A stretch of DNA of 64,000 nucleotides, taken from the NCBI GenBank assembly GCA_023140255.1, contig JAGLLX010000003.1, positions 7,485 through 71,484 on the forward strand. Reading direction: 5' to 3'. The position numbers and the translations under genes were made by a program. Origin of the DNA: Minisyncoccota bacterium. GTDB lineage: Bacteria; Patescibacteriota; Minisyncoccia; Phycocordibacterales; UBA12079. Under the pieces are notes generated by a model, which saw nothing but the letters and a program-made list of their open reading frames with translations, was not told the origin of the DNA and searched no databases. Below are positions 1,468-5,050 of the stretch, one piece after another. The stretch's first letter is position 1. Each line of letters starts with the position of its first letter.

Positions 1468-1681
1468 ATATGGCTTAAAACAATGATGAAAACATTAAAC
1501 TTAGCTATATCTAATAGGCAGGTTTTAAGCTAACTCTCTTTTTCAACATTCCACTCTCTACATTTTGTCTCCTATAAGTTATAATTACAAGTGAGGATTT
1601 ATAAAAATAAATTATGCTAATATTTTTATTTTTATATAATCTGAGCGCAGTAAATATATACTCGCTTTATATAATTTAAGT

Positions 1682-2275
1682 ATGGATAATTATGTTGATT
1701 TCTTAAATATTGAACAGATTTATTATTGGATTTATCTTTTAATAAGTAATATATTTTATTATCTTAATCCTGTTAGATGGACAAGAATATATTATGATAA
1801 TTGGCCTTTAATAATGCTTTATTCTTTGATATTTTCTGCTATTTTACTTGCAGGAATTATTTATATTTATAATAAAATGAAAGTTGTTAAAGAAAGATAC
1901 TCAGAGGTTTTTAATACTGTTATGATACCTTCTTCTGATTCTGAAATGGGAGTTTTGAAAAATGAAAGATGGGAAAAGATTATAAGACATGTAAATTCAG
2001 AATCTCCTTTAGAATGGAGGTCTGCAATTTTGGATGCTGATGTTATTTTAGAAGAAATGCTAACAAAAATTGGTTATGCTGGAGAAACTTTAGGAGAAAA
2101 ATTAAGACAAGTAGAGAGAAGTGATTTTCTTACTATAGATAGTGCTTGGGAAGCGCACAAAATAAGAAATAAGGTTGCGCATGAAGATTTAGATTCCATC
2201 TTTTTAAATCAAAGACTTGTTAAAAAAACAATAAGTTTATATCAAAAAGTATTTGAAGAATTTCAATATATCTAA
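1682..2275 (+). CDS. Hypothetical membrane-anchored protein; the C-terminal half has an R-x4-H motif (RNKVAH) reminiscent of HEPN
   Basis: The N-terminal ~60 aa are hydrophobic. The C-terminal soluble domain contains EAHKIRNKVAHE. No stronger family assignment is possible from the sequence. Confidence 0.4.
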   Translation: MDNYVDFLNIEQIYYWIYLLISNIFYYLNPVRWTRIYYDNWPLIMLYSLIFSAILLAGIIYIYNKMKVVKERYSEVFNTVMIPSSDSEMGVLKNERWEKIIRHVNSESPLEWRSAILDADVILEEMLTKIGYAGETLGEKLRQVERSDFLTIDSAWEAHKIRNKVAHEDLDSIFLNQRLVKKTISLYQKVFEEFQYI

Positions 2276-2478
2276 CCTTGTTTTTTGGGTAGTTTTGATG
2301 TATATTACTAGTGTAAATGGTAGGTAGAAAGTAGTAAAAAATTTGCTTTGCAAATTTTTTTAAAGTTAAGTTAAATATATTGTAGGATGGTGTAGGCGAT
2401 CTGCACACAGAAGGACTAATATGACTTATAGCCTCTGGAGGTTGTTAAAAAAACTTAAAAATTGAATAAGGTAAATAT

Positions 2479-2549
2479 CGCGGGATGGTGTAACGGTTGC
2501 ACAGGAGGCTCATAACCTCCAGGTGTCTGTTCAAGTCAGGCTCCCGCAA
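2479..2549 (+). tRNA. Initiator tRNA-fMet (anticodon CAU)
   Basis: The cloverleaf can be folded by hand. The acceptor is cgcggga/tcccgca with a C1xA72 mismatch, which is a bacterial initiator feature. The anticodon loop is ctCATaa, and the T-loop is ttcaagt. Confidence 0.7.
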
Positions 2550-2643
2550 CAAGTAAACAAAAAGCTTTGGAATTTAATTTCAGGGCTTTTTGTTATTTAT
2601 ATATTTAATAATTCCTCTAAATATGATATATTATGTTTTAATT

Positions 2644-2717
2644 GTCGGCGTAGCTTAGTTGGTTAAAGCGGGCGTCTCATACGCGCCAGATCAATGGTTC
2701 GAATCCATTCGTCGACA
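2644..2717 (+). tRNA. tRNA with CAU anticodon (elongator Met or lysidine-modified Ile2)
   Basis: Acceptor gtcggcg/cgtcgac, D-arm gctt-agttggtta-aagc, anticodon stem ggcgt/gcgcc with loop ctCATac, T-arm aatgg-ttcgaat-ccatt. Confidence 0.7.
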
Positions 2718-2727
2718 CAGTATAAAT

Positions 2728-2764
2728 AAAAAACTCTCTTAATTAAATTAAGAGAGTTTTTTAT
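2728..2764 (+). terminator. Rho-independent terminator after the tRNA pair
   Basis: aaaaactctcttaatt-aaattaagagagtttttt: a perfect hairpin followed by a U-run. Confidence 0.6.
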
Positions 2765-2876
2765 GTGAGTATTTGGTTAGGTAAATGTCCTGTCACGTAT
2801 TATAATTATATTAAGATTATCAATTTCAATTAATATTTTACATATTAATAGGTTGATACATTAATAACATAAAAAG

Positions 2877-3542
2877 ATGCCTATTTATAAAAAAGTAAAT
2901 GTAGATTTTTTTAAAAAATGGTCTCCCAAAATGGCTTACGTTTTAGGGTTTTTTATGGCTGATGGTTCTATTGATATAAATCCACGAGGTTCGCATTATC
3001 TTAGTATTCAAATTTGCGATAAGGAACTTTTAGAAAGTATAAAGAAGACTTTAGAGTCTAATCATAAAATATCAGTAAGGAAAGGGTTTGGGAATGAAAG
3101 CGATAAATATAGACTTCAAATAGGTAGAAAAGAAATGTTTGAAGATTTACAAAAGTTGGGAGTAAATCAACAAAAATCACATACAATGGAAATGCCAAAA
3201 GTTCCTAAAAAATATTTCGGAGATTTTGTTAGGGGTTATTTTGATGGAGATGGAAATGTTTGGGTGGGGTTTGTTCATAAGGAAAGGAAAACACCAACTT
3301 TAGTTATTCATACGGTGTTTACTTCATGTTCTAGAATGTTTTTAAATTCATTACATAATGAAATACAGGAACAAGGAATTTTAGGAGGGGGAATTATTTG
3401 CAAAAAGAATGCTTTTTGTTTAAAGTATAGTATTAACGACTCTTTAAAATTATATAAGTTAATGTATAATAGTCTTGATAACGACTTATTCTTAGAAAGA
3501 AAAAGAATTGTTTTTAAAGAGTTCGCAAAATTGCGGGTGTAG
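2877..3542 (+). CDS. Double-motif LAGLIDADG homing endonuclease (free-standing)
   Basis: Two LAGLIDADG motifs are present: YVLGFFMADGSI and FVRGYFDGDGNV. The 221-aa length is typical of a monomeric double-motif enzyme. The stop codon TAG (3540-3542) lies inside the 5' acceptor stem of the downstream tRNA-Asp. Confidence 0.8.
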   Translation: MPIYKKVNVDFFKKWSPKMAYVLGFFMADGSIDINPRGSHYLSIQICDKELLESIKKTLESNHKISVRKGFGNESDKYRLQIGRKEMFEDLQKLGVNQQKSHTMEMPKVPKKYFGDFVRGYFDGDGNVWVGFVHKERKTPTLVIHTVFTSCSRMFLNSLHNEIQEQGILGGGIICKKNAFCLKYSINDSLKLYKLMYNSLDNDLFLERKRIVFKEFAKLRV

Positions 3543-3605
3543 CTCAGCTGGTAGAGCATTCGCTTGTCACGCGAAAGGTCGCCGGTTCAAGTCCGGTCAC
3601 TCGCG
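3533..3605 (+). tRNA. tRNA-Asp (anticodon GUC)
   Basis: Acceptor gcgggtg/cactcgc, D-arm gctc-agctggtag-agc, anticodon stem ttcgc/gcgaa with loop ttGTCac, T-loop ttcaagt. Confidence 0.8.
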
Positions 3606-3612
3606 CAAAATA

Positions 3613-3650
3613 ACAAAACCAAAGCGTTTAGCTTTGGTTTTGTTATTTGT
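3613..3650 (+). terminator. Terminator after tRNA-Asp
   Basis: aacaaaaccaaagc-gttta-gctttggttttgtt followed by atttgttt. Confidence 0.55.
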
Positions 3651-3726
3651 TTGTACAAATTCTAAATAAGTGGTAGAATATTTTTTGGTTTTGTTCTTAT
3701 AATCTAAAACAGAAAAGGAGTTCAGA

Positions 3727-4242
3727 ATGAAGGGTAAGTTAGTTTTGTTAAGTATTTTGGTTTTTGTTTTTTCTTTATTTTTGTGCAATTCGGTTTTTGC
3801 TGATTGGCATAAATTAACCCAAGAAGAAAGGGATAATTTTATCATACAAAGAGCTTACGGAGATCAGGACAAATTTGTTGGCGAAAGTTGCAAAGAATGG
3901 GTGCGGACTGTTATAAAATCCGCATCAAAAAAAGCTGTAATAATTCCACCAACAATAACTCCTAAAGATTCATGTTGGTATAATAGCCCTAATATTACAA
4001 TTGCTACTAAAAAACTTTGTGCAGTTCAAATAGGGCATGTTCTTCAAATGGATCTTGCTAGGAGCCGTTTCCCCCATACTGCTATTGTTATTGGCAAAGG
4101 TTTATACGGACTTGTTCTGATAGAAGCTAATTGGGATAGGACTCCTGCTGATGGAACAGATGCATATGTTCGTCGTCGTTATGTTTCTTTCACAACTTTT
4201 AATAATCAGGTTGAATCATTTACAGCTTATAATATTCTGTAA
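3727..4242 (+). CDS. Secreted protein, possible CHAP/papain-like hydrolase
   Basis: Signal peptide MKGKLVLLSILVFVFSLFLCNSVFA. A Cys in GESCKEWV and a His in PHTAIVIG are spaced like a CHAP domain. This is a weak call. Confidence 0.35.
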   Translation: MKGKLVLLSILVFVFSLFLCNSVFADWHKLTQEERDNFIIQRAYGDQDKFVGESCKEWVRTVIKSASKKAVIIPPTITPKDSCWYNSPNITIATKKLCAVQIGHVLQMDLARSRFPHTAIVIGKGLYGLVLIEANWDRTPADGTDAYVRRRYVSFTTFNNQVESFTAYNIL

Positions 4243-4333
4243 AGATTCTGACTGAGTAGTATCAAAAGAGGTAATCTTGTTAGATTACCTCTTTTTTCTT
4301 TTATATTAAAAAAATAATGGTAAGATAATAGCA

Positions 4334-5050
4334 ATGACAAAATTATATATTACAGCTACACCAATAGGGAATCTAGAAGATATTAGTCTTCGTGCTTTAA
4401 GAATTCTTAAAGAAGTTGATTTCATCTTGTGTGAAGATACTCGGGTAACTAAAAAACTTTTAAATAAATACGAAATAAAAACTCCAACAATTTCATATCA
4501 TTCATTTAGCGGAAAAATTAAAACAGATAAAATATTAGAACTATTAGAAGAAGAAAAGGATTTAGCTTTAGTTTCGGATGCAGGTACTCCTACTATTTCT
4601 GACCCTGGTTTCCAGTTAGTTTCTCAAGTCAGGAAGAAATTTGGAGAGAAAGTAGAAATCTTACCAATACCCGGGGCTTCAGCTTTAAGTTCTGCTTTGT
4701 CAGTTAGTGGTCTTCCATCAGATACTTTTATTTTTTATGGATTTTTACCACATAAAAAAGGGAAGCAAAGTATTATAAATGAAATTTTAGAATCGAAAAG
4801 AACATCTGTTTTTTATGAGTCACCACATAGAGTTTTAAAAACCTTAAAAATGATTCAAGAATTATCAATAAAAAATGAATCTAACCCTAAACATTCTGTC
4901 GGGCAAGGTAAAGAAATAGTTATAGCTAGAGAATTAACTAAAATGTTTGAGCAAGTTGTTGCGGGGAATATAGGTAAGGTATCAGAATATTTTGAAAATA
5001 ATCCTGATAAAGTAAAAGGTGAGTTTGTAATAATTATTTCAGGAAATTAA
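4334..5050 (+). CDS. rsmI: 16S rRNA (cytidine1402-2'-O)-methyltransferase, tetrapyrrole-methylase fold
   Basis: N-terminus LYITATPIGNLEDISLRALRIL...CEDTR, which is typical of RsmI. Length 238 aa. Confidence 0.8.
   Translation: MTKLYITATPIGNLEDISLRALRILKEVDFILCEDTRVTKKLLNKYEIKTPTISYHSFSGKIKTDKILELLEEEKDLALVSDAGTPTISDPGFQLVSQVRKKFGEKVEILPIPGASALSSALSVSGLPSDTFIFYGFLPHKKGKQSIINEILESKRTSVFYESPHRVLKTLKMIQELSIKNESNPKHSVGQGKEIVIARELTKMFEQVVAGNIGKVSEYFENNPDKVKGEFVIIISGN

Follow-up and report, generated by a model that had tools for sequence, protein, structure and literature searches.

A free-standing LAGLIDADG endonuclease gene at a fixed site overlapping tRNA-Asp in Patescibacteria, with the tRNA gene as its probable target

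Why should a gene for a LAGLIDADG homing endonuclease stand among transfer RNA (tRNA) genes of a bacterium, with its stop codon inside the tRNA gene that follows? The question is raised by a 64,000-nucleotide (nt) stretch from a Minisyncoccota bacterium of the Patescibacteriota (GenBank assembly GCA_023140255.1, contig JAGLLX010000003.1, positions 7,485 to 71,484 of the forward strand), which as a whole is called the window here and on whose plus strand all window features described below lie. An open reading frame (ORF) at 2877 to 3542 begins with ATG, encodes 221 amino acids, and ends with a TAG at 3540 to 3542. We consider it probable, from patterns in the DNA, that this is a free-standing homing endonuclease gene that targets the adjoining tRNA-Asp gene, whose carriers are immune through an intron or a mutated target, which bears a copy of the target as an operator in its own promoter, and which has a promoter for the tRNA embedded within it.

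The translation matched two Pfam profiles above their curated cut-offs, LAGLIDADG_3 (PF14528) over residues 17 to 86 (E value, 1e-9; 39 bits against a cut-off of 22.5) and LAGLIDADG_1 (PF00961) over residues 120 to 218 (E value, 9e-7; 30.1 bits against 23.1). The first LAGLIDADG motif, LGFFMADGS, is encoded at 2943 to 2969 and the second, RGYFDGDGN, at 3231 to 3257, and both retain the acidic residue preceding glycine, catalytic D29 (2961 to 2963) and catalytic D125 (3249 to 3251); the A-D-G of the first and the G-D-G of the second were invariant in all 78 family members. An AlphaFold2 model, with 30 relatives as input, had a predicted local distance difference test score (pLDDT) of 91.5 and a double alpha-beta-beta-alpha-beta-beta-alpha fold, i.e., two repeats of a helix plus four strands, in keeping with the pseudo-dimeric LAGLIDADG fold and its beta-sheet DNA saddle. 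The best solved structures found with Foldseek were I-Tsp061I (E value, 1e-10), I-AniI, I-OnuI variants, the I-DmoI-derived E-DreI, and the bI3 maturase; the top matches were all LAGLIDADG enzymes (E values, 1e-10 to 1e-8; template modeling scores, about 0.6 to 0.7), at no more than 20% sequence identity to any solved structure. The gene has its own ATG after an intergenic region, and its 221 residues hold LAGLIDADG domains only, so that it is not intein-associated; no intron model matched nearby, and the flanking tRNAs are complete. The sequence-only reading of this locus, which had seen a free-standing, monomeric, double-motif gene with its own upstream region outside any intron or intein, was thus borne out.

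The tRNA-Asp(GTC) gene occupies 3533 to 3606 (ARAGORN; Rfam, 70.3 bits), is intronless, and has a D-loop GGTAG rather than GGTTAG and a U32 rather than a C32. Its first 10 nt, 3533 to 3542, are at the same time the last codons of the ORF (..G CGG GTG TAG), and the stop codon is U8-A9-G10 of the tRNA, as had been noticed from the letters alone. Upstream lie an initiator-type tRNA-Met(CAT) with a mismatched 1:72 pair at 2479 to 2550 (ARAGORN; Rfam, 53.9 bits) and a second tRNA-Met(CAT), a CAU tRNA at 2644 to 2718 (ARAGORN; Rfam, 67 bits), which is the conserved upstream neighbor of the endonuclease gene. ARAGORN and Rfam both reported all three tRNAs as complete, in agreement with the earlier claim that they are intact.

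The arrangement is not peculiar to this genome. Homologues in the protein database numbered 2287 cluster representatives, and the best 120 of these were all about 220 to 230 amino acids long, 54 to 100% identical, and from Patescibacteria (Paceibacteria/Parcubacteria lineages); an identical protein is annotated as hypothetical in a metagenome-assembled Candidatus Pacebacteria genome. An exhaustive search gave 139 clusters (50% identity) at E values of 1e-30 or lower, with relatives encoded in at least 496 Patescibacteria species-representative genomes. Around such relatives we fetched 80 loci (numbered with an L below), picked by similarity to the intact protein, and resolved tRNA-Asp in 73. 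The order tRNA-Met, ORF, tRNA-Asp recurred, the upstream neighbor being nearly always tRNA-Met(CAT), and the wider synteny was gatC, gatA, a membrane protein gene of about 200 codons, tRNA-fMet, tRNA-Met, ORF, and tRNA-Asp. In 62 of the 73 loci the ORF ends inside tRNA-Asp, at the TAG of nt 8 to 10 in 42, at nt 13 to 15 in 10, at a D-loop TAG in 8, and after further read-through in 2; odd C termini among the homologues (..CGRSSTG, ..NAVVV, and ..AAVAQR) are tRNA-Asp translated in other frames. Viral contigs hold distant relatives only (27 to 41% identity), of which 1 of 80 adjoins a tRNA, and phages as carriers of this subfamily are thus unsupported. A literature search found no description of an endonuclease gene upstream of tRNA-Asp. 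The family is large and previously undescribed and, on the sequences compared, appears Patescibacteria-specific, free-standing, and confined to one fixed site between tRNA-Met(CAU) and tRNA-Asp(GUC). The earlier supposition that such genes are rare therefore fails within Patescibacteria, and so does that of a remnant or an accidental wedge, since the position, the overlap with tRNA-Asp, and the two DNA motifs described below, one upstream and one internal, are all kept among relatives 45 to 70% identical.

The gene is absent from the same site in other genomes. For a sample drawn blind to the ORF we used the upstream membrane protein as an anchor; 4 of 11 look-ups hit contig ends or had no tRNA cluster, three gave filled sites (L202, L203, and L206, the last frameshifted), and four gave empty sites (L205, L207, L208, and L209) in which tRNA-Met is followed after 49 to 55 nt by tRNA-Asp. 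A metagenome scan with a tRNA-Asp pattern, which is that of the canonical bacterial tRNA-Asp and mostly retrieved other phyla, recovered five Patescibacteria-like loci, and this DNA-pattern scan supplied two more empty sites, L198 and L200. Across the six empty sites the spacer between tRNA-Met and tRNA-Asp is 48 to 83 nt, and close relatives with identical synteny are included; L200 has the window's entire gene order and a GatA 66% identical. The same flanks surround filled sites in the window, L002, L202, L203, L206, and L212, so that relatives of the window are polymorphic for the ORF at one homologous site. Between the window ORF and its closest relative (84% amino acid identity) there are 56 synonymous and 37 nonsynonymous codon differences. 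The invariant aspartates, these codon differences, and the empty sites together suggest selection for an intact and presumably catalytic protein that is dispensable to the host, a profile which is that of a homing endonuclease gene rather than of a housekeeping factor. Four copies are disrupted, by a single in-frame stop in L046, L049, and L059 and by a frameshift near codon 25 in L206, and retain their full length apart from that; recent pseudogene formation or sequencing error is the probable cause. Three further contigs reached through the membrane protein (L201, L204, and L211) end 55 to 500 nt past that gene, before the tRNA/endonuclease region, and these ends could be assembly breaks from population polymorphism there.

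What, then, would such an enzyme cut? The intron that splits the tRNA-Asp gene downstream in half of the relatives turns out, as we read it, to hold the key to the biology of the endonuclease gene. In many loci ARAGORN overlooked tRNA-Asp, the gene being broken after ..CCTGT and resuming with CACG.., between nt 35 and 36, and the Rfam group I intron model (RF00028) matched directly after the ORF (82 bits in L001, 53 bits in L071). Exon reconstruction placed an insert of 194 to 260 nt at 35/36 in 37 of the 73 loci and none in 36. The insert lies 26 nt downstream of the ORF and has no internal ORF, giving in these 37 loci a free-standing endonuclease gene adjoining a gene with an ORF-less intron; the window's own tRNA-Asp, as said, is intronless. 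Intron states are intermingled on the ORF tree, and the intron-bearing tRNA-Asp genes in these samples all have the ORF. Introns of this 35/36 class self-splice in vitro without protein (Nakagawa et al. 2026, PMC13011429). That survey sought endonuclease genes only inside introns longer than 500 base pairs (bp) and concluded that tRNA introns are mostly without endonuclease genes and of limited mobility (PMC13011429). The tRNA-Asp intron carriers in its set are GCA_001029755.1, GCA_023898525.1, and GCA_030583725.1.

A second clue stands upstream of the gene. At 2775 to 2796 the window carries a perfect match to GGTTAG-N8-CCTGTCAC, the sole match in its 64 kilobases, which is a copy of nt 18 to 38 of tRNA-Asp with the same spacing; in the canonical bacterial tRNA-Asp this string runs from G18 in the D-loop to C38 in the anticodon loop across the same 8 nt. 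At 22 bp it is as long as LAGLIDADG targets typically are. A TATAAT -10 box, putatively of the endonuclease promoter, follows 4 nt later at 2801 to 2806. When upstream regions were aligned on corrected starts (45 ATG and 22 GTG), the string tGGTTAG-N8-(C/A)CTGTCAC-GNGR-TATAAT-N6-start was conserved (...CACGNGR-TATAAT-N6-ATG/GTG around the box), the distance from the first base of the block to the start codon being exactly 38 nt in most loci and 22 nt in a second arrangement (GGTTAG-TGTATAAT-ACTGTCAC-ATG). With up to two mismatches allowed over the 14 specified positions, 38 of the 65 upstream regions had the motif, compared with a single one of 5776 background windows from the same loci. With 6 nt between the -10 box and the start codon, leaderless messenger RNAs (mRNAs) would serve for most of the family. 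In the window this gap is extended by very AT-rich DNA to about 70 nt (2807 to 2876), and its nearest relatives also have added AT-rich DNA here, L202 and L001 being similar. We regard the upstream block as a candidate binding site of the endonuclease over its own promoter, that is, an autorepression operator.

If the motif marks the target, resident tRNA-Asp genes should tell. Scored against GGTTAG-N8-CCTGTCAC at fixed spacing, and spliced where needed, tRNA-Asp matched perfectly in 24 of 37 loci with ORF and intron, in 2 of 38 with the ORF and no intron, and in all 6 loci without the ORF. The difference between intron-bearing and intronless ORF-bearing loci gave a P value of 2.7e-8 by Fisher's test, which carries no full correction for shared ancestry. 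Only 2 of the 75 filled alleles scored had a candidate site free of both the intron and mutation. Each intron-bearing locus was also compared with the intronless one nearest to it in ORF identity; the match to the motif was poorer in the intronless locus in 25 pairs, better in 6, and equal in 5 (sign test, P = 4e-4). Among 11 loci whose sampling was blind to the ORF, tRNA-Asp was canonical and intronless in all of those that lack the ORF (6/6) and in none of those that have it (0/5). Promoter copies of the motif remain canonical even where the resident tRNA-Asp has changed. Intronless carriers deviate from the motif in at least 10 different ways, including substitutions (GGTTAA, GGCTAG, GGCTAA, GGTTAT, C31U, and C32U), a one-base deletion (GGTAG), a one-base insertion (GGTTAGT), GGTCTAG, and whole-arm replacements, which suggests repeated independent escape rather than one inherited quirk. 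The window's tRNA-Asp, with GGTAG and U32, has three mismatches at fixed spacing and is in line with this pattern. A model with the site centered on the point of intron insertion and with no immunity other than the intron was rejected because identical 28-mers surround 35/36 in both classes, whereas a site including the D-loop discriminates the locus classes.

Two unusual arms of tRNA-Asp were also seen. An archaeal- or eukaryotic-looking D-arm, GUGGUGUAGCCUGGUUAACAC, is present in L008, L010, L027, L045, L053, L057, L066, L069, L072, and L206, all of which are ORF-bearing and intronless. In one lineage (L004, L007, L018, L022, L024, L028, L035, L043, L048, L049, L068, and L077) the T-arm GGGG-UCAGCA-CCC replaces GGUUCRANUCC, hence no T54-Psi55-C56.

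An ORF that abuts the tRNA raises the further question of how the tRNA is transcribed. Spacers before tRNA-Asp in empty sites carry a promoter-like TTGAGA-N17-TAAAGT, which cannot exist in filled loci because the ORF abuts the tRNA. Within the ORF, at codons 189 to 198 (TCT TTA AAA ... ATG TAT AAT; 3441 to 3470), 63 nt before tRNA-Asp, the window has a promoter-like motif (promoter scan, 10 of 12 positions at 3443 to 3470). The family consensus is TCTTTGAAATTA-N12-TATAAT, 65 to 85 nt before the tRNA; TTGAAA-N15-TATAAT was present without mismatch in 39 of 81 loci and with at most one in 51, the window being off by 1. Codon-by-codon comparison of synonymous choice with the family's own usage in 73 ORFs showed a strong bias at just these codons, most of all at S189 (TCT observed in 76%, expected in 21%; -log10 P, 17) and L190 (TTG, 81% against 20%; -log10 P, 24), and also at K191 (AAA, 96% against 71%), L192 (TTA, 64% against 34%), Y197 (TAT, 96% against 74%), and N198 (AAT, 100% against 78%); R220 (CGG) stands out as well, because of the tRNA overlap. 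The motif persists in ORF copies with in-frame stops. We take it as a putative promoter that would express tRNA-Asp independently of the (repressible) endonuclease promoter. In phage T4, host promoters embedded in free-standing endonuclease genes are known and are thought to favor retention (PMC2988022).

The family membership, fold, invariant catalytic residues, fixed site, tRNA overlap, presence/absence polymorphism, and conserved DNA motifs with their statistics are established by these comparisons; the identity of the target, its cleavage, autorepression, and promoter activity we infer from sequence patterns, and the parts may work together as follows. The enzyme would recognize a site of about 22 bp in tRNA-Asp, from D-loop to anticodon loop (nt 18 to 38, the motif given above), and would cut genomes that have a canonical, intronless tRNA-Asp and no endonuclease gene. 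Repair from an endonuclease-bearing donor would then copy in the adjacent gene together with the donor's immunity determinant. Immunity could be had by either of two routes, a self-splicing group I intron at 35/36 that interrupts the right half-site, or an alteration of the D-loop, of the spacing, or of positions 31/32, the route that the window (GGTAG, U32) would use. The copy of the target over its own -10 box would let the protein repress its own transcription, and a promoter within the last 35 codons would keep the essential tRNA-Asp transcribed, because the ancestral spacer promoter has been displaced. The ORF, having no stop codon of its own, would borrow the tRNA's near-universal U8-A9-G10, a side effect, on this view, of packing the cassette as tightly as possible against the target gene. 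The mobile cassette would thus comprise operator plus promoter, ORF, embedded tRNA promoter, and the first bases of tRNA-Asp. Purely by inference, an mRNA cleaved by RNase P at 3533 would lose its stop codon, which could limit expression still further.

That the endonuclease probably cuts the tRNA-Asp gene would account for the frequency of self-splicing introns and odd D-loops in tRNA-Asp of these bacteria. We advance more tentatively the wider picture of a long arms race across the phylum between a chromosomal LAGLIDADG endonuclease and an essential tRNA gene, with a self-contained, tRNA-promoter-carrying, "selfish but harmless" cassette as one outcome, which would repress itself through a tRNA-gene mimic over its leaderless promoter and would be without a described counterpart among LAGLIDADG enzymes or cellular tRNA genes. 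Such an arms race, if true, would explain both the retained intron at the unusual 35/36 position of tRNA-Asp and its diverse D-arms (GGTTAA, GGCTAG, one-base indels, and the archaeal-looking GUGGUGUAGCC).

Several observations weigh against the proposal of a homing endonuclease that targets tRNA-Asp. The window's -10 box is about 70 nt from the ATG against 6 nt in most relatives, and the 15-nt spacer of the embedded motif is short by the Escherichia coli standard. The association tests are without proper phylogenetic correction, and a small number of loci (n = 11) was sampled independently of the ORF. L019 and L065 are exceptions among the intronless ORF-bearing loci in that their motif is perfect, and loss of catalytic residues, which are intact in both, does not account for it. 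Thirteen intron-bearing loci are also noncanonical at the motif. Some 28-mers around 35/36 are shared by spliced intron-bearing and by intronless ORF-bearing loci, so immunity is not decided by the right half-site alone. Finally, no recent horizontal transfer was seen, in that no locus pair had an ORF identity far above its GatA identity, and a conservation like that of GatA fits long vertical residence as well as homing.

The last point also favors the alternative to which we give the most weight, namely that the protein is a domesticated host factor, a site-specific DNA-binding regulator or a nuclease that is vertically inherited, is no longer mobile, and binds its own promoter and the region of tRNA-Asp to control expression of the latter. 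Mean pairwise identity was 0.51 for the ORF, near the 0.56 of GatA and far above the 0.35 of the neighboring membrane protein (ORF and GatA identities correlated weakly, with a rho of 0.21, which is uninformative at these divergences). More than 90% of sampled copies are intact, the position is fixed in conserved synteny, a tRNA-gene-like motif over the promoter suits a regulator, and WhiA shows that a LAGLIDADG protein can give rise to a transcription factor. The sole PDB match at the sequence level is in fact a marginal one to WhiA (3hyi; E value, 0.014), and the first domain has a weak WhiA-like Pfam similarity (E value, 0.003; PF14527 at 17.9 bits, below its cut-off of 23.2). The share of intact copies is biased upward, however, since loci were picked by similarity to the intact protein; close relatives of the same synteny lack the ORF (L200, L205, L207, L208, and L209); the catalytic aspartates are invariant in 78 of 78 members, unlike in WhiA; and resident tRNA-Asp loses the motif unless it is split by the intron, as expected if binding is harmful. 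We therefore think domestication, one of two options offered by the sequence-only reading, unlikely, the empty sites in close relatives having weakened it.

The other option, an inactive relic of an invaded element whose reading frame is open by chance, has in its favor the displaced promoter box, a window ATG with no evident ribosome-binding site before it, and the lack of a target for the enzyme within the window. We judge it quite improbable, as the ORF keeps its full length and each of the 44 residues invariant in family alignment A1, its substitutions relative to the closest relative are mostly synonymous, the upstream motif is perfect, and the internal one is off by a single position. 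A maturase that aids folding or splicing of the tRNA-Asp or other group I introns, like I-AniI and the bI3 maturase, would account for the presence of those two proteins among the best structural matches, for the group I intron 26 nt downstream in half of the ORF-bearing loci, and for the ORF beside every intron-bearing tRNA-Asp sampled; yet the window and 37 other ORF-bearing loci have no tRNA-Asp intron, the 35/36 intron self-splices in vitro without protein (PMC13011429), and the invariant catalytic aspartates and the promoter motif would be left unexplained, making this role quite improbable too. That the ORF lies within a group I intron between split tRNA exons, a possibility to which the tRNA-fMet-like fragment at 2385 to 2407 and the tRNA-Asp-like stretch at 2775 to 2796 might point, is refuted for practical purposes, since a permissive Rfam scan (E value up to 5) of 1500 to 5000 was empty of group I signal, all three tRNAs are complete, and the relatives' intron, 194 to 260 nt with no ORF within, is inside tRNA-Asp downstream of the ORF. 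The sequence-only reading had named split exons around the ORF as what would overturn it; no exons are split in that way, though tRNA-Asp downstream is itself interrupted by a group I intron in half of the relatives. None of these rivals, be it regulator, maturase, relic, or intron-encoded enzyme, explains both the empty sites and the avoidance of the target.

The remaining features of the neighborhood frame the unit proposed here. A perfect, terminator-like hairpin followed by a T-run at 2729 to 2764 (read from the sequence; weak Rfam hairpin matches at 2714 to 2776) may separate the tRNA-Met transcript from the endonuclease unit, and a terminator-like hairpin with a T-rich tail at 3609 to 3647 (likewise read from the sequence; weak Rfam hairpin-type matches at 3607 to 3670) may end the ORF/tRNA-Asp unit. 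At Rfam gathering thresholds the whole window gave four tRNAs only. Outside the endonuclease unit, the tRNA-fMet-like fragment that had been proposed at 2383 to 2445 shrank to 2385 to 2407: local alignment to tRNA-fMet nt 4 to 25 (20 of 23 aligned columns, two gaps, score of 22, reached by 0 of 500 shuffles) indicates a similarity that is real but small, whereas ARAGORN and Rfam found no tRNA-like match there and the fold of 2376 to 2450 was no better than that of shuffles (z, -0.9). It sits 72 nt upstream of the true tRNA-fMet, within a 203-nt spacer that measures 35 nt in L200. It is probably a decayed partial duplicate of tRNA-fMet and could, by analogy with 2775 to 2796, be the relic of a tRNA-gene-like site for another element. 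After the tRNA cluster the window continues with a secreted 171-amino-acid protein (3727 to 4242) and rsmI. In the closest relative (84% identical endonuclease; L212:4068-4964, L213:1620-2516), a tyrosine integrase gene follows tRNA-Asp and tRNA-Thr, and the tRNA cluster would on that account also be an integration hot spot.

Two side observations concern insertion at this cluster. In L015 (4666 to 4737), L064 (1132 to 1203), and L031 (1466 to 1558) the ORF tail ends in a 12- to 17-nt duplicate of the tRNA-Asp 5' end, followed after 60 to 80 nt by the complete tRNA-Asp, which looks like the scar of an imprecise cassette insertion; the intervening stretch of L015 and L064 has TTTTGGTT(C/A)GG.., resembling the -10 region of the empty-site promoter. 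A second ORF family of about 230 amino acids, unrelated-looking to the main ORF and absent from the window, is found at L206:4161-4856 and in 11 of the 80 loci (e.g., L005:1622-2302). It has an N-terminal helix-turn-helix (PF13384; E value, 1e-4) and one LAGLIDADG-like motif (GLGLYWGEG), comes after tRNA-fMet and before the second tRNA-Met, and extends by about 15 nt into the tRNA that follows, where it stops at the D-loop TAG; it may be another free-standing endonuclease with the same docking trick.

If our interpretation is right, the limited-mobility inference of the 2026 tRNA-intron survey would need revision, as an endonuclease gene stands next to the tRNA and 26 nt away from the intron position, and streamlined genomes would have a reason to keep the intron, namely, protection against a resident nuclease. 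It would also be the first time that a LAGLIDADG enzyme of a cellular chromosome is found in nature with collaborative homing, autoregulation, and promoter embedding. Target escape can be studied in hundreds of natural "experiments," and a predicted 22-bp target for a compact 221-amino-acid meganuclease scaffold with many natural specificity variants would be of use in genome engineering. On the practical side, tRNA-Asp genes overlooked by annotation tools can be found downstream of the endonuclease ORF.

How does the system compare with those already known? WhiA, the LAGLIDADG-derived transcription factor of Gram-positive bacteria, resembles the present protein in its weak first-domain similarity and in the possible binding of its own promoter. 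WhiA has a C-terminal helix-turn-helix domain and has lost the catalytic acidic residues; the endonuclease family has no extra domain and retains its catalytic aspartates. The monomeric enzymes I-Tsp061I, I-DmoI, I-AniI, I-OnuI, and I-SceI share with our model two motifs each with a catalytic aspartate, a length of about 200 to 250 amino acids, and the same fold, and for such enzymes a target of about 22 bp in two half-sites is expected. Those enzymes are encoded in group I or archaeal introns or in inteins, whereas the gene described here is free-standing on a bacterial chromosome with its 3' end fused to a tRNA. To our knowledge, no homing-site-like operator has been described for a LAGLIDADG enzyme. 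A parallel for one is phage T4 I-TevI, which is autorepressed through a homing-site-like sequence over the -10 region of its own promoter (PMC2988022) and is a GIY-YIG enzyme with separable binding and catalytic domains; the counterpart here is a candidate operator. T4 SegB is also a free-standing endonuclease gene among tRNA genes, targets a tRNA region, and is co-inherited with flanking tRNA markers (PMC2988022), but it is a phage GIY-YIG enzyme for which no ORF/tRNA overlap, intron partner, or tRNA-gene-like operator is reported there. F-CphI with the psbA intron of cyanophage S-PM2, and T4 mobE with the I-TevIII intron, likewise set a free-standing endonuclease gene beside a gene with an ORF-less group I intron. 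In such collaborative or trans homing the donor owes its protection to the intron or to a sequence variant, and conversion carries the endonuclease gene and the intron together (PMC6083498, PMC2790892, PMC2988022). Those pairs involve phage protein-coding genes and Endo VII-like or HNH enzymes, in contrast to a chromosomal tRNA and a LAGLIDADG enzyme, and here the intron would lie in one half-site rather than at the proposed center, half of the carriers using target mutation instead. The 35/36 introns of tRNA-Asp and tRNA-Asn surveyed in Patescibacteria (PMC13011429) agree with ours in position (between CCTGT and CAC), length (about 200 to 260 nt), phylum, and the absence of an internal ORF; the endonuclease gene directly upstream of tRNA-Asp is unmentioned in that study. 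Each element of the system thus has precedent in T4 or cyanophage endonucleases of other families, and what appears to be new is the LAGLIDADG family, its residence in a cellular chromosome across a phylum, the body of a tRNA gene as the target, the combination of features, and the implication for the tRNA-Asp intron.

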